A DNA stretch of 64,000 nucleotides from positions 246,596-310,595 of the forward strand of contig JAVVEA010000002.1 in the NCBI GenBank assembly GCA_032250835.1. The letters are read 5' to 3'. The position numbers and the translations under genes are program-made. The notes under the pieces are model-generated. The model did no database searches. It saw only the letters and a list, made by a program, of their open reading frames with translations, and was not told the origin of the DNA. Source of the DNA: a bacterium. Lineage in GTDB: Bacteria > SAR324 > XYD2-FULL-50-16. Positions 16,325-46,760 of the stretch are shown piece after piece (position 1 is the first letter of the stretch; each line of letters starts with the position of its first letter).

Positions 16325-17121
16325 TCGAACTGCTCTACGAACTTCGCTGGCAAGACCTAATAGATATCGCCTTACTGACAGCGATCATCTATAGCTTCAT
16401 CATCATGTTGCAAGGCACCCGCACCGTCCAAATCGCCACCGGCTTCTTCTTGGTGGCGGTGATCTACTACTTGACCGACTTTCTAGGCCTCGCCGGATTG
16501 AACTGGGTGTTAAACAACCTGTTCAGCAGCATTGTGGTGGTGATCATCATCTTATTCCAGGCCGACATCCGAAAGGCCCTTGCCCAGATTGGCGTGCGCA
16601 CTTTTTTTAGGGACTACAACCCCCGCAAGGCGGTCACGCTGATCGACCAGTTGATCAAGGTCTGCGAGCACTTCGCTAAGACCCGCACCGGCGCGTTGAT
16701 TGTGTTAGAAAAAGACATTGGCCTGAAAGAACACTACACCAATGCCACCCGTTTGGACGCCCAGTTCAGCCCTAAGTTGTTGGCCACCTTGTTTAACACC
16801 CACGGCCCCCTACACGACGGCGCGGTGGTGATCGATAAGGGGCAGTTGATCAGCTACGCCGGTTGCATCTTACCTTTGTCGAACCAAGAAGACCTGAGCG
16901 GAAACCTAGGGACGCGCCATCGTGCCGCCTTGGGCCTTTCGGAGATGACCGATGCGGTGATTCTGGTGGTGTCTGAAGAGCGCGGGGTGATCAGCATCGC
17001 TCATTTGGGGCAGATGATCCCCGGCGGGAGCGAAGCCAACCTGCGCCGCAAGTTATATGAGCTGTACATGGAACGCCCGATGGACAAAGCCGAATTGGCT
17101 CGAGAAGAGGAGGGCGCATGA
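16321..17121 (+). CDS. cdaA: Diadenylate cyclase CdaA/DacA
   Basis: Three N-terminal TMs, HDGA and GTRHRAA catalytic motifs, VVSEERG. Confidence 0.93.
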   Translation: MIELLYELRWQDLIDIALLTAIIYSFIIMLQGTRTVQIATGFFLVAVIYYLTDFLGLAGLNWVLNNLFSSIVVVIIILFQADIRKALAQIGVRTFFRDYNPRKAVTLIDQLIKVCEHFAKTRTGALIVLEKDIGLKEHYTNATRLDAQFSPKLLATLFNTHGPLHDGAVVIDKGQLISYAGCILPLSNQEDLSGNLGTRHRAALGLSEMTDAVILVVSEERGVISIAHLGQMIPGGSEANLRRKLYELYMERPMDKAELAREEEGA

Positions 17122-18071
17122 TCAAGAAGCTCAAGCTAAAATTCAACCTAACCAACAACTGGCCCCAAAAGCTGGTGGCTTTGGTGCTGGCTTGTTTTAT
17201 CTGGGCTATGGCCCCTTCGCCTAGTAAGAAAGGGCTAACGGAGATCCAATTTTTTGTGCCCGTTAGTTACATCAACACGCCCAAAGATCTAGAGATGACC
17301 AGCACGCCCTTGCAGACCGTCAGCGTGGTGGTCGAGGTGCCGCCCCGCGATCTGCCCGACGTGCATCCCTCGAATTTTCAGGCAGTGATCGACCTAGACG
17401 GTGCGGCTCCGGGCACGCGCAAGTATAAGATCCACAAGCGGGCGATCAAAGCCCCCAAGGCGGTCAGTATTGTTCAGGTGAACCCTGAATCGGTTGAGAT
17501 CACTTTTGAAAAGGCGATCACCAAAGAGCTACCGATCCAACCGGTCCTGGTTGGCACTCCGGCGCAGGGCTATGTGCTGGAAAAAGTCACCATGATTCCC
17601 GCCCGCATCGAGGTCCACGGACCTGCCCGTAGTTTAGAAGGGGTGGACCAGCTAGAGACGAAGGCGCTGAACATTGAAGGAGTCAGCGGCGAGATCGAGA
17701 TGTTCGCCCAGATTGCTTGGCCCGAGGGGGTCAAACCGACGCCTGCGGCACCGGACAACTTCACGGCGCGGATTCAGGTAGGCTCCGAGCCGGTCAGTCG
17801 GAGGTTTGATAAGATCCCCATTGGCGTGGTCAACCAAACTTACGTCACCCGGATCAACCCGAAAAACTTCAACCTCCTGATCCGAGGGCCTAAGTCTTTG
17901 GTGGACTCGATGACTATCGACGACATCCAGGCCTTCATCGACCTAAAGAGTTATAAGCCCGGCACCTATAAGGTCAAACAGCCCACCGTAAGGCTGCGCC
18001 CGGAACTGCAAATCCAAGAAGCTTGGCCGCCTATCGACGTGTGGGTGCTCAACCAAAAGATTTACGAATAG
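17118..18071 (+). CDS. cdaR: CdaR/YbbR-domain regulator
   Basis: NW..KL.AL..A..IW N-terminal TM, three YbbR-like repeats, ATGA overlap with cdaA. Confidence 0.88.
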
Positions 18072-18073
18072 CC

Positions 18074-18796
18074 ATGCCCAAACTGCACATCAACGTTGAC
18101 CATATCGCCACCATCCGCCAAGCCCGACTGACCACAGAGCCAGACCCGGTATATGCGGCCTTGATGGCTGAACAGGCCGGGGCCGACGGGATCACCATCC
18201 ACCTGCGCGAAGACCGCCGCCACATCCAAGACCGGGACTTGGCTCTTTGCCGTCAAATGGTCCAGACCCGATTGAACCTGGAAATGGCGGCCACCGATCA
18301 GATGACCGAGATTGCGCTGAACCAAAAGCCGGATATTTGTACCCTAGTGCCCGAAAAGCGCGAAGAGGTGACCACAGAAGGCGGTTTGGACGTAAAGGCA
18401 GCTCAAGAAAAATTGCGGCAGATTATGCCTGCCCTGAAAAAAGCGGGCATCCGGGTCAGTTTGTTTATCGACCCCGAGAAGGAACAGATTGATCTCGCCG
18501 CCCAGTTGGGTGCCGATGACGTGGAATTACACACCGGCGAATATGCCAACGCCACCGGACCGGCGGAGTTAAGCCAACTAGTCCGGTTGGCCCAAGCCGC
18601 CAGCTACGCCCACGGACTGGGGTTGCAGGTCAACGCCGGACACGGCCTGACCTACTTCAACGTGACCCCCGTAGCGGCGATCCCCGAAGTAGCCGAGCTG
18701 AACATCGGCCATAGCATCATCTCTCGCGCCACCTACGTAGGCATCGACCAAGCGGTCCGCGAAATGATCACCCTGTTGGCCAAAGCCCGCGCTTAG
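18074..18796 (+). CDS. pdxJ: Pyridoxine 5'-phosphate synthase
   Basis: [36 protein letters not shown]. Confidence 0.97.
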
Positions 18797-19063
18797 GTTG
18801 AATGTCTTGAGGCGGCCAACTTGGGGGCTTTAGCAGGGCCAAGGTGCCGCCTAAAACAAACATACCAGGCTGGTCATCATACAACTCCGCTCCTTATATC
18901 TGTTCTATGGGCGGGGCCCCGCTCCTCTTCTTAGCCTTCTCGGGCCGTTAATTTCCAAAACACTCGTCGTTGCAAAGTCTCATCATTGGAATGCGTTCCT
19001 TTGACTTATCAAGATGAAATTGACTTTGAGTTTTATTATATGATAAAAAGGGGCAAAGGTGCT

Positions 19064-19212
19064 GCAACTGTGCCTGGACCCCTGTTGTTGCCGAAGCTAC
19101 TAAGCAAGCTGTATTCAAGATTGACTCTATTTTTCCTCTATCTTGGAATGTTTTTCCGTGTGTAACAGGGGCTTATTGGAAAAACAGTCCAGATAGCAAA
19201 AGGAAAAATATG
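19064..19212 (+). promoter_or_regulatory. Structured 5' leader (RBS-sequestering hairpin plus loop-loop pairing), unknown family
   Basis: Hand-folded: 19128-19158 pairs with 19177-19210 (about 29 bp including AGGAAAAATA); loop AACAGGGG (19164-19171) is complementary to CCCCTGTT (19079-19086). Confidence 0.6.
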
Positions 19213-20925
19213 AGCCTCTCAGATCCTGCCAAGTTTCTAAAAGATAAAGCGAAACTCCTCCGTCGTCAGCTTAAAAACGCCACTTCTCTAGGTAGTCAAA
19301 CCGCTGCGCTTGAAGCTGTAGCATTTAGCTATACTGGAAAATCATGGGACTGGTGCGCCCATCAAAACAGGGTAGGGAAACTGACGATTCGCCCAAGTGA
19401 TTTTTCAATAAGTCGATTTCTTGAGTATACTCGAATACCCACAGAGGTTGGGCAATTGATAGAATATCGAGTGTTCCGTTGGCGAAAGCATAACGAACCT
19501 ATTGATGTTATTATTCAACCTGCAACTGAAGCGGATTTTCAAAAGATCCTTGATTGGCTTCAAACGGAGCAGGACTCTGAAGGTTTAGGGTTTTACGGTA
19601 ACCGTAACATTATCGCAGACCATTTTGAAGAAGGTGAATTGATCGTTGCAAAAACGAAAGACGATTACCCGGCTGGGTTTATTACAGGACCCATTGCCGG
19701 GCCAGATATTCTTTCAGTACAGAGTGATTTCAGGAATAAGGGCGTTGGCAAAAAACTGATTGAATACGTTATTGCGGCGGCCAGGGAAGCAGGGGAGTGT
19801 GCGATAAAAGTTGACATCAATCCTCGGACAGCAATTCCTTTTTATAAGAAACTAGGATTTCAGGTATCTGAGTCCGAAAATGCTAGGTCTGTGACCGGGT
19901 GGCTAACGTTGGAAAAGAGCATGCAACTTCCTGCCGGAACCCCAGTCCAACTAGAGATTAAGTTTTATCCAGAAAGTAAAAAATGGAAAGAAACAACAGA
20001 GCCGTTATCTACAGTCTTTCCCAACGCGATTAAAATCAAAAATGGATTGATTCATCTGAGTGAAAGAGTGGTGTTCAATTACTCGAATTATTCGGCTGTT
20101 CGAGATCCTGTTATCTCAATATCTGTCAACGGGAACGAGCTATATTGCGATAAAGCAAAGTATAGTGAGGCAAAAGTATTGGGAGTAAAACGGCATTCTC
20201 ATGGTTACTACATTGAAACATTGAGGCAACCTTTTGAGGTTATTGAGTATGCTAGGGCGGGCAAAGAGGTGGTGGCTTCCATTACAAACCTACAGTTGTT
20301 TCCAAATTGCAATCACCTTTACACCACATTGAATCGCCTTTTTCGTAAAGGTCAAAATCATGCAGAAGACTGGTTTGACTATACTGCAGAAAAGAACGCT
20401 TTTAGAAAAATCGAAAAGAAACTTGGTGGAATGGAAGCCAACAATTCGCAGGATATTGGGTTGGACTACTGCCTAAAACACGGTGGAGTGGATGGGTTTA
20501 TTTTTGCCCTAAATACTATACCAGAATTTGGAGATCCCATCCTCCGCCAATTTTTTGCGAAAGTGTTGGCGGATTTGGATCCAATTGTTCAAAAACGATT
20601 TCCCGGAGACGAAACGATTCAGCGGGCAATCACTGCTTTATTTGAAGGAAAGCACGCAATCCAGGACCCTTTTTACCGTATTTATGCTGAGAAATTAGAC
20701 CGAACCGCCAATATGGTCAGAAGAACAGTAGAATATGCATTGCGGTCATTTGGCAATTTGCATGCCCGAGGTTTTCAGTATGGGGTGGTTGAACATGCAA
20801 TTTCTGCGATTGTAAGTAGTGCCGGAATTGAGAGTTACAATGAGCAAAGTTCGCCTGAAGCAAAAAAACTAGCAAGATCGGAACGGGCTCGCTTCAAGAA
20901 GCTGGCAAATCAATATTTTAAGTAA
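19210..20925 (+). CDS. Multidomain protein: short helical N-terminal module + GNAT acetyltransferase + unknown C-terminal domains
   Basis: GNAT motif A V..DFRNKGVGKKLI and motif B N..AIPFYKKLGF; N-terminus K.KAK.LRR.L...ALEAVA...G.SW; visibly more AT-rich than its flanks. Confidence 0.75.
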   Translation: MSLSDPAKFLKDKAKLLRRQLKNATSLGSQTAALEAVAFSYTGKSWDWCAHQNRVGKLTIRPSDFSISRFLEYTRIPTEVGQLIEYRVFRWRKHNEPIDVIIQPATEADFQKILDWLQTEQDSEGLGFYGNRNIIADHFEEGELIVAKTKDDYPAGFITGPIAGPDILSVQSDFRNKGVGKKLIEYVIAAAREAGECAIKVDINPRTAIPFYKKLGFQVSESENARSVTGWLTLEKSMQLPAGTPVQLEIKFYPESKKWKETTEPLSTVFPNAIKIKNGLIHLSERVVFNYSNYSAVRDPVISISVNGNELYCDKAKYSEAKVLGVKRHSHGYYIETLRQPFEVIEYARAGKEVVASITNLQLFPNCNHLYTTLNRLFRKGQNHAEDWFDYTAEKNAFRKIEKKLGGMEANNSQDIGLDYCLKHGGVDGFIFALNTIPEFGDPILRQFFAKVLADLDPIVQKRFPGDETIQRAITALFEGKHAIQDPFYRIYAEKLDRTANMVRRTVEYALRSFGNLHARGFQYGVVEHAISAIVSSAGIESYNEQSSPEAKKLARSERARFKKLANQYFK

Positions 20926-21190
20926 ATCAGGGGGCAGCACTTGTTTTATTTCAGAGGGTGTACCGCTAGTCACCCCCTCAAGCATCGCTGCGCTCGCTTA
21001 TCGGGGTGAATCCAGCGCGTTGTCGCCAATCTGGGCCGAGATTAAAGTCTAAGCCTTTGCTTTTTTCACGGGCTGGGTACACTTCCTTAAAGCGCTGGAA
21101 TATTGAGGCCTTGCTTTTTTGGAGCGCACCTTCATCCCTCAAGTCCTTTCGAAGGGGCGCTGCCCCCTCGGCGGCTCCGCCTCACAACGC

Positions 21191-21331
21191 AGCTTCGAGG
21201 CCGAAGATCGAGGACTCGTTTCTTTGCAACATTTCCATTAGGTGTTGGCTTCACCAACGACTTAGGCTGCGCAACCGCCGCCAGCTCGCGTCGTCACAGA
21301 CGTCACCCTCGGCCTGCGGCCTTGAAGCTCC
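21191..21331. repeat. Degenerate copy of the palindromic repeat family, with terminal inverted repeat
   Basis: GTTGGCTTCACCAAC (21244-21258), GCTCGCGTCG and CCCTCGGCCTGCGGCCTTGAAGCTC match the 46.5-kb unit; AGCTTCGAGGCCG (21191-21203) is inverted relative to CGGCCTTGAAGCT. Confidence 0.65.
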
Positions 21332-21402
21332 TTAGTGGGCCGATGGCCCCTGGACCCCACTTATTTTTTTCTCTATTCGCTCCGCGCCTTTTATTTCGCC
21401 CC

Positions 21403-21460
21403 CAAACAAAAAAAAACCGGAGCTTTACCCAAAAGGGTAACGCTCCGGTTTCTGTTTTTT
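21403..21460. terminator. Bidirectional intrinsic terminator
   Basis: AAACCGGAGC-T-TTACCC-AAAA-GGGTAA-C-GCTCCGGTTT stem with an A-tract on the left and a T-tract on the right. Confidence 0.7.
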
Positions 21461-21478
21461 GCTCGCCCTTACCTAGTC

Positions 21479-21775
21479 TTAATCGCCCGAATAGGTGCTG
21501 TCGATGGTGATGATCTGCGCGCAATGGCCCATGCTGTCGCCTCGGGTCTTGCTGATCGGGGAGGCGTTATGGCGCATGTCCAGCTGGCGTTGGATATTGG
21601 ACTTCAAACACCAATACTTGGTGTTGCCGTGGGTGCGCAAGATACAGCGGATATTGCTTTCGAGACATACCTTGGGCTTCTTGATGCCCCGTACCGTATC
21701 GTTCGCCGCCCAGGCAGGCAGGGTTAGCCACATTGCCATTAGGGCCAGGGCTAGGGTTTTTTTTAGAGCACTCAT
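21479..21775 (-). CDS. Small secreted hypothetical protein with 4 Cys
   Basis: Signal peptide MSALKKTLALALMAMWLTLPAWA; followed by the terminator. Confidence 0.6.
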   Translation of the reverse strand: MSALKKTLALALMAMWLTLPAWAANDTVRGIKKPKVCLESNIRCILRTHGNTKYWCLKSNIQRQLDMRHNASPISKTRGDSMGHCAQIITIDSTYSGD

Positions 21776-21851
21776 GGGCTTAATGCGTTCGAGTTGGGTT
21801 CACGTCGAGGCCAGCGCCTCGGGTTTCCCTATGAGAATTCAAGTACCATGC

Positions 21852-22451
21852 CTAACGGTCATAGGGCTGGCGGCCTTCAAAGGCACGGGCCAGGGTGGCC
21901 GAGTCGGCGAATTCTAAATCCCCGCCAGAGGGCATGCCCCGGGCGATACGGCTGATCTTGATGCCCGGCTTGCTGAACAGGTCGGTTAGGTAATGGGCCG
22001 TGGCCTCGCCTTCTAAAGTGGGGTTGGTGGCCAAGATCAACTCGGTTACGCCGCCTTGGACCACGCGGCGTTCCAATTCGCTGATCCGTAGGTCTTCTGG
22101 GTAGACCCCGCTTAAGGGGCTGATGGCCCCGCCTAAGACATGATACAGGCCTGAATAGACATGGCTGGCTTCAATGGTGAAGACGTTGCGCCCCTCTTCG
22201 ACGACGCATAATTGGCTTTGGTCCCGCTTGGCATCACCGCAAATACCGCAAGCCTCTCCTTCGCTCAATCCAAAACAAACGGGGCATTGGCCGATCAGCC
22301 GAACCGCTTGCTCAATGGCCGCCGCTAAGGCCAAGGGAGTGTCTTTGGGCTGGTTGAGCAGGTGGAAAGCCAGTCGTTTGGCCGACTTCTTCCCCACCGA
22401 AGGCAGCTTGGACAACTCTTCAATCAAGACCAATAATGAGGCGGGCAGCAT
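21852..22451 (-). CDS. recR: Recombination mediator RecR
   Basis: LPSVGKKSAKRLA HhH, C4 zinc finger, YHVLGGAISP, TOPRIM ATNPTLEGEATA. Confidence 0.97.
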   Translation of the reverse strand: MLPASLLVLIEELSKLPSVGKKSAKRLAFHLLNQPKDTPLALAAAIEQAVRLIGQCPVCFGLSEGEACGICGDAKRDQSQLCVVEEGRNVFTIEASHVYSGLYHVLGGAISPLSGVYPEDLRISELERRVVQGGVTELILATNPTLEGEATAHYLTDLFSKPGIKISRIARGMPSGGDLEFADSATLARAFEGRQPYDR

Positions 22452-22810
22452 TACTTTTTCTCGCCACCAAAGGGGAAGCCCATCCCGGCTAATTTACTCA
22501 GGTCAAAGTTGCCTAGCATGTCGCCCAGGTCGGGGCCGCCAAGGCCCTTGTCCTTGACCTGCTTGATATTTTCGTTAACGGCGGCGCGGATCAGGTCTTC
22601 TAAGGTTGCCTTGTCGTTCTTGTCCATCACCTCCGGGTCGATCTCCACCTTAAGCAATTCCAGATTGCCGTTCATCTCGGTTTTGACCATGCCGCCGCCG
22701 ACCGAAGCGGTGACCGTCTCGTTAGAGGCGGCGCTCTTTTTTTCTTGTAAGGATTTCTGGAGCTCTTGGGCCTTGGCCATCAAGTCATTTAAATCCATTC
22801 CGTTAAACAT
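22451..22810 (-). CDS. ybaB: Nucleoid-associated protein YbaB/EbfC
   Basis: GGGMVK, LEDLIRAAVN; AAGGAG RBS before ATG 22810; between dnaX and recR. Confidence 0.93.
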   Translation of the reverse strand: MFNGMDLNDLMAKAQELQKSLQEKKSAASNETVTASVGGGMVKTEMNGNLELLKVEIDPEVMDKNDKATLEDLIRAAVNENIKQVKDKGLGGPDLGDMLGNFDLSKLAGMGFPFGGEKK

Positions 22811-22812
22811 GC

Positions 22813-25533
22813 TCACTCCTTCTTGGGGTTAGGTGGTTCCCAGGACTTAGTTTGACTTTGGGGGAACACTTCTTTGATTTTAAGGACCTGGGGGTCTTCG
22901 AAGGCCGCCTCTTTACGGGCCACTTCGGCAGCGGCTCGCCCGCGCAGTTCTAGGGCCCAGAGGCTTTCTTCGGCGGCGCGGTCGCTCGCGAGAATCTCAA
23001 TCTTAGGCTCATGGCCAAAGTACCCAGCAGCAAATTCGGCCAGTTGGGCCCGCTTCTCGTTGGAGAAAAGTGCCGGGTTGCGGCAGCCGATCACCAGTTT
23101 TTCGGCGCTAAATTCTAAGGCTACGCTACTTTTTAAGAAGGATAGCAGACTTTGGTTACCTACTCCACTAAAGCGGGTCACAAAATCCCGCCAATCGGGT
23201 TCTGAATCCTGGGGCGCTGTTGTTTGGAGCTCAGAGGCTGCAGACCTAGTGGAAACCTCGTTCCAAAGCGCCGAGGTGGGGTTGCTGGGCAGGGCAGCCT
23301 CGATTTCCTGTTCTACCGGGCCTTCGTCCTGGGTTACCGGCACGGGGTCTTGGGCCTCCATTTGGACCGCTGCCGGGGCTTCAAAACGCAATCCGGTGGC
23401 TTCGGTTGCGGCCACCGGGTCTGTTCCTGATCCCTCTAGCGCTTCGTTGGGCGCTGCGGCTGCCGGGGCCGGAGGCTCTTCAGCCGGTCCAGCGGTGCCT
23501 TCGCCCATTTCTTCGGGGCTGGGGTCGTAAGCTTCGGCTAATTCCCATAGATCACCACCTACATATTCCGGCGGTTCGGGTCGTTCGTCTAGCGGGCGCT
23601 CGGGCAGGGTGTCTGCTTCAGCGTCCAGCCATTCGGGCGGTTCACCGGGGTCTTCAGGGGCGCTCCAAGCGGGGGCCGAGGTCCTGGACTGCTCCGCCAC
23701 CCGTTGGGGTTCGGTTTGGGGCGCCGCCACGGCAGGGGGTTGCGGCAGCGGTTTGGCGGCAGGAGCCTCCGTTTCGTTGCTCCGCTCCGCGCTCGGTGGG
23801 ACTAGTGGTTCTGGGGAGCCTTGGGCAACGGGGGCCTCGGATCGCTCCGGTAAGTCTTTAACCGAAGGGACCGCCGGTTTTCCTGGGTCCGGCTGGGCCG
23901 GTTTGGGGGGCGTACCCGTTGCGGGGCCGGGAGGGGCCGTTTCGGTATCGGGGGCTTGATCGACCTGCACAAGTTCCGGAGCCGGGGTTGCTTGCCTTTG
24001 GTGGGCCTCAGGCTGGACCGGGTTGAGGGCGGCTTGAGCGGGTTCGGGGTTCTCTGGGCCCGGCGGCGCTTGAATCACCCTAGGGATTGCCTCAGGTTCG
24101 ACCGATGCCGGGGCAGGCGGAGCCAACTCAGCCTGTGGGGCGGGCGTTGGGGAGCTCAGGTCTGCGGGGTGTTGGCTGGCAGCCGGTCTTGGCGTGGGCG
24201 GCACGGGGCCGGGCAGGGTCGCCGGATTGGCGGCCTGAGGCGTGGCTTGGCTGGGGGGCACCTCGGTGGGGCCTACTGCTTGCGAAGGGTCTAGCCGCTG
24301 GGCCGATAGCTCCGGTTGGTCCGGCTCAGTTTTCGGCCTAGGGGCTTCGGGTCGGTGGCGCTCAGGTGCGGGGGTTATACTTTTTTTTAGCGGGTCCCGA
24401 GCCGATTCGAGTAGGCCCAAGATTTCGCTCAACCCCTGCAATCGCTCTAGGGCGCAGAGCTTGACCAGCGCCATCTCGAAGGCCATCTTCGACTGGGAGC
24501 TTCGACGCATCTGGGCTTCGGTTTCCATCAGGATCTGGAAGATTTGCTGCAAAGCGGCGCTACTGATTTGCTGGGCCAACTCGCGGTAGTGGGTCAACTG
24601 ATCGGGTAAAAACTCACGCCAAGCGAGTTTGTCCGGCGGCAGTTCCTTGACCAAGGAGAGGTCCTTGACGGCGGTCATCAACTCGGCCAGCAGCTTGTCT
24701 AAACTGCGGCCCCGGCGGACCTGGGCCTCTAGGTTGTCCAATGCGGCGTAGAGGTCGCGGGTGATGATGGCGTCCAACAATAAATCCATCTCCCGGGCTC
24801 CGCCCAGCCCTAAGAGCGAAACCACCGCCTCGTCGTCAATCTGCTGGCCCGAAAAGCTAACCAGCATGTCTAGCGTGGTCAGGGCGTCGCGCATCCCGCC
24901 TGAAGAAGCCCGAGAAATCAGCCCTAGGCCCGTCTGGCTGATGGCTAGTCCCTCGTCTTGGGCTACCTGGGTCAGGTAAGACACCATCTTCGATTGGGGG
25001 ATGAAGGCGAAGTCAAAGCGCTGGCAGCGCGAAACGACGGTGATCGGGATTTTGTGCGGGTCGGTGGTGGCCAAGATGAACTTGACGTGCGACGGGGGCT
25101 CTTCCAGGGTTTTGAGCAGGGCGTTGAACGACTCGGTGGTGAGCATATGCACCTCGTCGATGATGTAGGTCTTGTAGCGGCCCTTCGAGGGGCTGAACTT
25201 GACGGACTCGCGTAGTTCGCGGATGTGCTCGATGCCCCGGTTGCTGGCGGCGTCGATTTCCATTACGTCGGCGCTGATGCCTGCGGAGATTTCCCGGCAG
25301 GGTTCACACTGATTGCAAGGTTCAGCGTCTTGGGGGTTTTGGCAGTTTAAAGCCTTGGTCAGGATGCGCGCGCAGGAGGTTTTGCCGGTACCGCGAGGGC
25401 CGGTAAACAAGAAGGCATGGGCAACGCGGCCCGTTTTGATGGCGTTGATCAGCGTCTGGTAGATCGCCTCTTGCCCGATCAGATCGGCGAAACGCTGAGG
25501 GCGCAGCTTTCGGGCAAAGACGAGATAAGACAT
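22813..25533 (-). CDS. dnaX: DNA polymerase III subunit tau/gamma with long Pro/Ala/Glu-rich linker
   Basis: ARKLRPQRF, GPRGTGKT, IIDEVHML, SRCQRF. Confidence 0.96.
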   Translation of the reverse strand: MSYLVFARKLRPQRFADLIGQEAIYQTLINAIKTGRVAHAFLFTGPRGTGKTSCARILTKALNCQNPQDAEPCNQCEPCREISAGISADVMEIDAASNRGIEHIRELRESVKFSPSKGRYKTYIIDEVHMLTTESFNALLKTLEEPPSHVKFILATTDPHKIPITVVSRCQRFDFAFIPQSKMVSYLTQVAQDEGLAISQTGLGLISRASSGGMRDALTTLDMLVSFSGQQIDDEAVVSLLGLGGAREMDLLLDAIITRDLYAALDNLEAQVRRGRSLDKLLAELMTAVKDLSLVKELPPDKLAWREFLPDQLTHYRELAQQISSAALQQIFQILMETEAQMRRSSQSKMAFEMALVKLCALERLQGLSEILGLLESARDPLKKSITPAPERHRPEAPRPKTEPDQPELSAQRLDPSQAVGPTEVPPSQATPQAANPATLPGPVPPTPRPAASQHPADLSSPTPAPQAELAPPAPASVEPEAIPRVIQAPPGPENPEPAQAALNPVQPEAHQRQATPAPELVQVDQAPDTETAPPGPATGTPPKPAQPDPGKPAVPSVKDLPERSEAPVAQGSPEPLVPPSAERSNETEAPAAKPLPQPPAVAAPQTEPQRVAEQSRTSAPAWSAPEDPGEPPEWLDAEADTLPERPLDERPEPPEYVGGDLWELAEAYDPSPEEMGEGTAGPAEEPPAPAAAAPNEALEGSGTDPVAATEATGLRFEAPAAVQMEAQDPVPVTQDEGPVEQEIEAALPSNPTSALWNEVSTRSAASELQTTAPQDSEPDWRDFVTRFSGVGNQSLLSFLKSSVALEFSAEKLVIGCRNPALFSNEKRAQLAEFAAGYFGHEPKIEILASDRAAEESLWALELRGRAAAEVARKEAAFEDPQVLKIKEVFPQSQTKSWEPPNPKKE

Positions 25534-46504: not shown

Positions 46505-46749
46505 GGCCTCGAAGCCCTAGGTCTGTAGGAATATTTTTATAGGGAAGTTGGCTTCGCCAACGGCTTGGGTCTGGCGCCACTCGCCGGCTCGCGTCGCTAC
46601 GCCCGTCGCCCTCGGCCTGCGGCCTCGAAGCTCTAGGTCTGTAGGAATATTTTTATAGGGAAGTTGGCTTCGCCAACGGCTTGGGTCTGGCACCACTCGC
46701 CGGCTCGCGTCGCTACGCCCGTCGCCCTCGGCCTGCGGCCTCGAAGCTC
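46505..46749. repeat. Tandem repeat, about 2.1 x 116 bp, directly downstream of tRNA-Ser(CGA)
   Basis: GGCCTCGAAGC recurs at 46505, 46621 and 46737; the two full units differ at two positions by eye. Confidence 0.9.
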
Positions 46750-46760
46750 CTTGGCGTGCG

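Follow-up and report, generated by a model that had tools for sequence, protein, structure and literature searches.

The gene at positions 19210 to 20925 of the window (the whole 64,000-nucleotide stretch analyzed here, from contig JAVVEA010000002.1 of a SAR324 bacterium) encodes a 571-residue protein of the Gcn5-related N-acetyltransferase (GNAT) superfamily. With roughly even confidence, we read it as a single-gene cassette that was horizontally acquired and that specifies a translationally gated, long-form GNAT-beta acetyltransferase with a role in conflict or in mobile elements. The cassette would consist of a sigma-70-like promoter, a conserved leader of ~155 nt, and the open reading frame (ORF), which an earlier note on this DNA had described and which is present together with the peptides quoted there. 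The features on which this reading rests are as follows.

19210 to 20925, plus strand: coding sequence of the 571-residue long-form GNAT protein, by ORF call, Pfam matches, homologues, and codon-position selection.
19020 to 19047, plus strand: promoter-like site predicted from sequence, with a −35 element TTGACT (19020–19025), a 16-nt spacer, and a −10 element GATAAA (19042–19047).
19054 to 19209, plus strand: conserved 5′ untranslated leader of ~155 nt, by identity to the leader of locus L028.
19063 to 19086, plus strand: 24-nt block identical in both leaders, TGCAACTGTGCCTGGACCCCTGTT, by alignment with L028.
19125 to 19214, plus strand: long imperfect hairpin predicted to form 34 pairs, in which the 5′ arm UUUUUCCU is paired with the Shine–Dalgarno (SD) sequence (GGA, 19202–19204) and the AUG.

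The structured leader that had been proposed upstream of this gene is real: its hairpin has a predicted folding energy of −34.6 kcal/mol (z −4.84), and none of 200 shuffled sequences was as stable. L028, the only other long-form locus with readable upstream DNA, carries the equivalent hairpin (−32.9 kcal/mol, z −4.65) ahead of the gene for homologue P0041, and the SD and AUG are buried in both. The promoter hexamers are likewise kept in L028 (TTGACT, 16 nt, GATAAT); a consensus promoter scan did not flag the site at 19020 to 19047, from which a transcript would probably start near 19054. Alignment of the window with L028 begins at the −35 TTGACT, and identity between the two varies by segment.

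Upstream of the −35 element: 37%
Segment with the promoter-like site: 67%
Leader (~155 nt), either half: 76%
Whole coding sequence: 54%
Codon third positions of the gene: 36%
Third codon positions of the adjoining N-terminal module codons: 41%

Because the leader (76%) is so much better conserved than third codon positions (36%, and 41% in the adjoining module), the pattern argues for purifying selection on the leader and against a recently shared 5′ end. The consensus fold keeps the hairpin, with invariant and complementary anti-SD and SD arms; of its 43 pairs, 10 show a one-sided compatible change and none a double change. A search of Rfam 15 over window positions 17000 to 23000 (E ≤ 1) returned no leader family, the sole match being a chance-level one to mir-373 on the opposite strand (21403–21461; 28.7 bits against a cut-off of 69). 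Exact matches to the 24-nt block among 45 loci were confined to the window's own loci and L028; no exact copy was found in IMG/VR, no blastn match to the leader in 72,556 plasmids, and no second copy in the genome. The CCCCUG of the block may pair over 6 bp with CAGGGG of the apical loop.

The block is overlapped by a short ORF of 14 codons in the window (19059–19103) and 20 codons in L028 (7139–7201), and the two predicted peptides share QLCLDPC. Two other readings of this segment were set aside on inspection by eye: an antisense promoter-like site on the minus strand (19232 to 19205) that the promoter scan had flagged, whose −35 element is not kept in L028, and an integron attC site formed by the hairpin, which has no integrase nearby and whose flanking core-site-like motifs L028 lacks.

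The protein is built as had been described for it: the N-terminal module is helical and is followed by a GNAT domain, a beta domain, and a disordered linker, with further helices forming a C-terminal domain. An AlphaFold2 model built from a 12-row alignment (mean predicted local distance difference test score [pLDDT] 78.6, predicted template modeling score 0.49) comprises five helices at residues 6 to 89, a GNAT fold at 98 to 235, eight strands at 244 to 339, a linker at 341 to 388, and helices at 390 to 570; prediction from the single sequence was unusable (pLDDT 35.3). Coordinates of the protein segments are given below.

19222 to 19374, plus strand: N-terminal module, residues ~5–55, three helices, net charge about +5, by PF20066 and hhalign.
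19375 to 19500, plus strand: second helical stretch, residues 56–97, common to P0041 only (31% identity).
19501 to 19920, plus strand: GNAT domain, residues 98–237, with the acetyl-CoA motif R175-N-K-G-V-G180.
19927 to 20229, plus strand: beta domain, residues 240–340, eight strands, with D314-K-A-K-Y318, by model and alignment.
20230 to 20373, plus strand: low-confidence linker, residues 341–388 (pLDDT 30–43).
20377 to 20922, plus strand: C-terminal helical domain, residues 390–571, present in the three long-form proteins only.

GNAT matches in Pfam exceed their cut-offs (Acetyltransf_7 at residues 143–219 with E 1.3e-11 and 45.1 bits against 27, Acetyltransf_1 with 39.7 against 20.7, and Acetyltransf_10 with 37.8 against 23.6), and the protein has the fold of the GNAT superfamily. 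The acetyl-CoA pyrophosphate-binding motif of such enzymes is R/Q-x-x-G-x-G/A; the corresponding R175-N-K-G-V-G180 is kept in all 10 family rows that cover it, once with serine in the last position. Codon-position identities against the 45%-identical homologue (0.58, 0.68, and 0.36) indicate a gene under purifying selection. The beta domain is modeled with block-mean pLDDT of 69 to 95 over residues 241 to 340 (at least 84 in nine of ten blocks). In 12 family members it drew no Pfam match at E ≤ 10 except two single chance matches, and in a profile search of the PDB nothing convincing (best E 0.59). The C-terminal region found no PDB profile match at E ≤ 10, a search of the Atlas with residues 236 to 571 gave no usable match, and when the whole model was compared with known folds by Foldseek on PDB, VIA-align wide, and BFVD, the matches listed were GNATs only.

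By its profile matches, the N-terminal segment of ~50 residues appears to be a diverged form of the module that begins Glyoxalase_8. The likeness that the earlier note had suggested was weakly borne out, in that residues 8 to 50 align to positions 9 to 51 of the 143-position model PF20066, though below its cut-off (E 0.001, 19.6 bits against 23.7; 21.8 bits in a six-frame search of the genome). Comparison of the module with 29 canonical Glyoxalase_8 members by hhalign gave 79.9% probability (E 1.4e-5, 42 columns, 33% identity). The canonical module reads AKRLR ... HSQALE ... RDWNTLSA, of which the window copy retains AK.LR, ALE, A, and W. No other segment of the protein is as well conserved between the two long forms (63% amino acid identity). 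A phmmer search with residues 1 to 97 against 1.84 billion representatives recovered, apart from the protein itself, only P0003 (E 2.5e-4, six stretches), whose sequence is a sixfold cysteine-rich repeat that we take to be YHS/TRASH-like; this match was treated as spurious. The canonical Glyoxalase_8 alignment found nothing in the PDB, and a full-text literature search for the family's name and accession turned up no publication.

Across the phylum (88 genomes), PF20066 matches were limited to model positions 7–59 or 7–75, in ORFs of 264 to 329 residues; two of these join the module to FGE-sulfatase and one to two FliMN_C domains (Pfam). A profile of four modules, which included the window's own and thus makes the retrieval partly circular, retrieved 57 proteins, whose partners by precomputed Pfam annotation were as follows.

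PF20066 only (typically ~145 residues): 32 proteins
FGE-sulfatase: 7 proteins
MreB: 5 proteins
FliMN_C: 3 proteins
FliM: 3 proteins
GNAT (the window protein and P0041): 2 proteins
Other VOC-type: 2 proteins
FtsZ fragment: 1 protein
ClpX zinc finger: 1 protein
Lon N-domain: 1 protein

Of the suggestion that this module is fused to varied domains in mobile DNA, the varied fusions were borne out, but many partners are of housekeeping type (MreB, FliM, FliN). Going by these annotations, the module is promiscuous and is not confined to mobile DNA. In a relative (L024, 1486–2451 and 2673–3155) mreB is immediately preceded by the gene for the module-FGE-sulfatase fusion, and in other records (P0010, P0011, and P0014–P0016) MreB itself bears a very similar module; together, these arrangements suggest a functional link or fusion by deletion. 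FliN-type and FliM proteins bearing the module were seen in L026 (1459–2253) and as P0009, P0050, P0054, and P0056.

The protein had been called an orphan, which overstated its isolation, since two long-form homologues and a family of short forms were found. P0041 (574 residues) is 45% identical over its full length, N-terminal module included, and P0002 (460 residues) is 36% identical, begins at window residue 98 without the N-terminal region, and has a partly deleted linker. P0002 came from a first word-index search and P0041 from a later profile search; the word-index search and a C-terminal profile search both missed P0041, and their counts are lower bounds. A scan of contig collections with the post-GNAT region yielded 19 loci, including the two long forms (L028 encoding P0041 and L029 encoding P0002), and the remaining loci encode nine distinct short-form proteins, eight complete (242–292 residues) and one fragment. 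These consist of GNAT plus the same beta segment of ~100 residues and are 31 to 37% identical to the window protein over that span, and D-K-A-K-Y is invariant in the alignment of the scanned family proteins. A short form on the Mesorhizobium plasmid NZ_CP080528.1 (L047, 3344–4327) has DKLKS in place of DKAKY. Structure search of the Atlas returned clusters of 241- to 267-residue "GNAT family" proteins, with 52 to 160 members each, aligning over residues 98 to 345 (template modeling score 0.56–0.60). The short forms and the Atlas clusters mark the GNAT-beta core as a family in its own right, of which the window protein is, by alignment, a rare long form with extra ends.

Gene order in relatives shows that the gene lies in DNA inserted between pdxJ and the gene for a small secreted protein, and it was probably acquired horizontally. 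The inserted segment is delimited as follows.

18797 to 21478, no strand assigned: inserted DNA of 2,682 bp, from the stop codon of pdxJ to the stop codon of the small secreted-protein gene, near recR.

In relatives, the same two genes are only 11 nt (G003, L002) or 27 nt (G007, L004) apart. The small secreted-protein gene (21479–21775, minus strand) is convergent with pdxJ and adjoins recR; its 98-residue product has a signal-peptide-like N terminus, and the gene is kept beside recR in several relatives. Within the insert are the promoter, leader, and gene, copies of two dispersed repeats followed by a terminator-like inverted repeat, and ~220 nt without assignment. Its G+C content falls to 0.43 at 19001 to 21000 as against 0.54 for the whole window, the sole strongly low-G+C stretch of the window, with 0.425 in the gene and 0.391 in the leader. 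Gene and leader are single-copy in the genome (BLAST), and the beta domain was found in 1 of the 88 phylum genomes, namely the source genome. No integrase or transposase adjoins the gene. As the earlier note had stated, no antitoxin ORF is adjacent, the flanks being pdxJ and noncoding DNA.

Relatives of the gene were found in accessory settings. ParA-like and conjugation-type genes surround the gene for P0041; the short-form gene of L040 and its near-identical copies has a complete QatABCD system ending ~270 bp away; and L027 carries a gene matching AbiJ_NTD4 (Pfam) and PDC-S32 (PADLOC) along with a separate PIN_12 gene. The sole plasmid match, among 72,556 plasmids, was on a conjugative Mesorhizobium megaplasmid, where the gene lies between hipBA-like and higBA/ImmA-like ORFs as read by eye from translations of an unannotated record. 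All-against-all comparison of neighbors across 13 related loci revealed no conserved partner gene, with neighbors shared only between near-identical contigs apart from an AbiJ-like gene common to L027 and L032, so that no antitoxin-type partner is in evidence. Genes 3′ of the short forms in L027 and L033 had been considered as possible separate counterparts of the long form (a Rosetta-stone arrangement) and proved unrelated to it (hhalign 0.1%). One of the ORFs 3′ of a short form, of 392 residues in L027 (4496–5674), has a module-like start (..HSHVYELLAAALGHQSW..), which hhalign supported at only 8.4%, and it has no Pfam or PADLOC match.

These observations are consistent with the following sequence of events. 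After transcription, the hairpin would lock the SD and AUG, so that synthesis would be off by default, and a trigger would have to open the hairpin for translation to proceed. In the protein, the GNAT domain and DKAKY beta domain would together form the catalytic and substrate-recognition unit, acetylating a macromolecular or small-molecule target. The three-helix N-terminal module would act at the protein level as an adaptor or targeting piece rather than as an RNA binder, and the C-terminal helical domain, behind its flexible linker, may be regulatory. The proposed leader gating, together with the settings of relatives (conjugative elements, QatABCD, AbiJ-like and PIN_12 genes, and hipBA-like and higBA-like genes), suggests as the most likely role that of an effector, kept under tight repression, in conflict between genomes or in the maintenance of mobile elements.

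Several points weigh against this reading. We know of no family member with a known activity, target, or phenotype. The promoter and transcript start are predicted rather than mapped, the leader is known from two sequences with no fully compensatory pair among 43, and its 5′ half is of ordinary stability (z −0.17). The tyrosine of the PFY position is tryptophan or phenylalanine in most relatives, and the fold searches were made with the whole model. Regarding the conflict role, the family was found in only 1 of 72,556 plasmids and was not found in 50,697 phage records or in IMG/VR; PADLOC-DB 2.0 returned no family for P0001 or P0002 at E ≤ 1 or for the short form of L037 at E ≤ 0.001. Defense or toxin–antitoxin-type neighbors were identified at only three of nine distinct locus sets with readable flanks, these being the L040 group, L027/L032, and the Mesorhizobium plasmid, the last by eye only.

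Two of several possible alternatives concern what the enzyme would modify. An inducible resistance or detoxification enzyme is unlikely: the core would acetylate a small molecule, such as an antibiotic that targets translation or a peptide-nucleotide toxin, and the leader would be a switch opened by ribosomes stalled on a short leader ORF. The erm and cat genes are controlled by such translation attenuation, and in both leaders a short ORF does cover the invariant block, with the SD-sequestering hairpin downstream. In the window, though, this ORF ends 22 nt before the hairpin (2 nt in L028) and would lack an SD if the transcript starts near 19054. All eight codons shared by the two ORFs are identical at third positions despite saturated synonymous sites elsewhere, so RNA or DNA sequence, not peptide, seems to be constrained. 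Weak NCBIfam matches do include resistance acetyltransferases, but far under their cut-offs (AAC(3)-XI with 20.5 bits against 300, AAC(6′) group E with 18.7 against 140, and ArsN2 with 19.4 against 125), and the extra N- and C-terminal domains would be unusual for an enzyme of that kind.

A further reading, rather improbable, would make the long form a self-contained, doubly gated sensor-effector and, separately, the module an undescribed docking tag. A new class of leader RNA would block translation until a trigger such as infection or plasmid entry or loss, the C-terminal domain and the module would restrain or aim the GNAT-beta enzyme, and the module would in one bacterial phylum tag MreB, FliM, FliN, FGE-sulfatase, and this enzyme for a common partner.

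The second alternative as to target, that of an aminoacyl-tRNA-acetylating toxin of the TacT/AtaT/KacT type neutralized in cis by the C-terminal domain or the leader, is quite doubtful. It shares the GNAT fold with such toxins, but no gene of the ribbon-helix-helix (RHH)/DUF1778 type lies beside the window gene or was seen in relatives, and the short form stands alone without a conserved partner. By the matches listed, the protein also appears no closer to these toxins than to generic acetyltransferases: the characterized GNATs nearest to it there are the generic protein acetyltransferases YjaB (E 5.1e-7), Naa50 (E 1.1e-6), RimI, and Ard1, whereas KacT matches at E 0.0056 and TacT3 stands 48th among the best 50 matches listed.

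The earlier note itself had proposed that the basic module binds its own leader, providing autoregulation, and that the two together make up a portable cassette set before interchangeable effectors. The module is indeed basic, is the best-conserved segment, and is fused to varied domains, and it occurs together with the leader in both long-form genes with readable upstream DNA. But a covariance model of the leader, run on 23 sources, matched only the window and L028; it found none of the three loci in which the module is joined to FGE-sulfatase or FliN (L024–L026) and no short-form locus. Among the 88 phylum genomes it matched the source genome only (0 of the 87 others), although three carry module fusions. 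Upstream of the module genes in L024 and L025 the folds are nothing unusual (z +1.17 and +0.46). Many module partners are MreB, FliM, FliN, or small VOC-type proteins, and P0002 lacks the module. The leader is thus a feature of the long-form gene rather than of the module, and the portable-cassette proposal is very improbable, although autoregulation within this single gene is conceivable. The module gene of L026 has a hairpin of its own over the ribosome-binding site (z −2.47; 4 of 200 shuffles), which has no sequence relation to the window leader. About equally remote is the idea that the upstream conservation acts mainly as DNA, as a promoter with a repressor operator, and that the hairpin is incidental, for while the 24-nt block lies just 3′ of the promoter-like site and the leader 5′ half is ordinary as RNA, conservation spans ~155 nt up to the AUG, both hairpins are far stabler than shuffles, and the anti-SD arm and the SD arm are complementary and unchanged between the two leaders.

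Downstream of the gene, the insert contains the following further features.

20970 to 21374, no strand assigned: copies of two dispersed genomic repeat units, 3′ of the gene, with 44 BLAST matches genome-wide.
21405 to 21460, no strand assigned: inverted repeat of 26 nt, 85% complementary, with A and T runs at its flanks, terminator-like in both directions.

The repeat core of ~95 nt (21243–21340) has ~21 to 28 BLAST copies in the genome, among them copies at about 46547–46633 and 46663–46752, and two copies lie just before tRNA-Ser(cga). The longer unit of ~240 nt (20970–21213) has three to seven copies. The dispersed repeat found no Rfam match, and its fold is ordinary (z −1.24). Beyond the insert, a dnaX-like ORF of 906 residues (22813–25533, minus strand) has a very long Pro/Ala-rich middle region, as read from the translation only.

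Taken together, three things that appear to be undescribed emerge: a two-domain family of GNAT plus DKAKY-beta acetyltransferases recurring in accessory DNA, a conserved leader, outside the catalogued RNA families, in which the ribosome-binding site is buried, and a helical module, filed within a Pfam "glyoxalase" family, that is carried by cytoskeletal and flagellar-switch proteins as well as enzymes. If the enzyme is a true conflict effector, the leader would represent a new way to silence such an effector; if the module is a true docking tag, MreB, FliM, and FliN would be expected to have a partner in common in this little-studied phylum. The finding is so far a clearly bounded lead rather than a mechanism.

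Among known systems, SD-sequestering leaders hold toxin and resistance mRNAs untranslated, as in the type I toxins hok and tisB and the erm and cat attenuators. The window leader is reminiscent of these in that the SD and start codon of a gene in mobile DNA are sequestered in a stable hairpin, but it has no Rfam match, and neither an antisense RNA gene nor a convincing leader peptide was found with it. CapRel(SJ46) is a single-chain fused toxin–antitoxin sensor, and by analogy only, the lone window gene similarly combines an enzymatic effector, a flexible linker, and a family-specific C-terminal domain; there is no homology, and autoinhibition or phage sensing would be carried over by that analogy alone. 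With TacT, AtaT, KacT, and ItaT the protein shares the GNAT fold, an accessory or mobile setting, and apparently tight control of expression, but it is multidomain, appears no closer to them than to other GNATs, and is encoded without an adjacent antitoxin gene. With Glyoxalase_8 (PF20066, ~145 residues) it probably shares the N-terminal module of ~50 residues (AK.LR ... ALE..A ... W); it lacks the beta-rich C-terminal part of that family and retains its best-conserved canonical residues (AKRLR, HSQALE, and DWNTL) only in part. Finally, generic GNATs such as RimI, Ard1/Naa10–Naa50, YjaB, and PA4794 are single domains of ~150 to 180 residues, whereas in this family the GNAT domain is always joined to a DKAKY beta domain without sequence match in Pfam or the PDB, and in the long form it is joined to N- and C-terminal helical domains as well.

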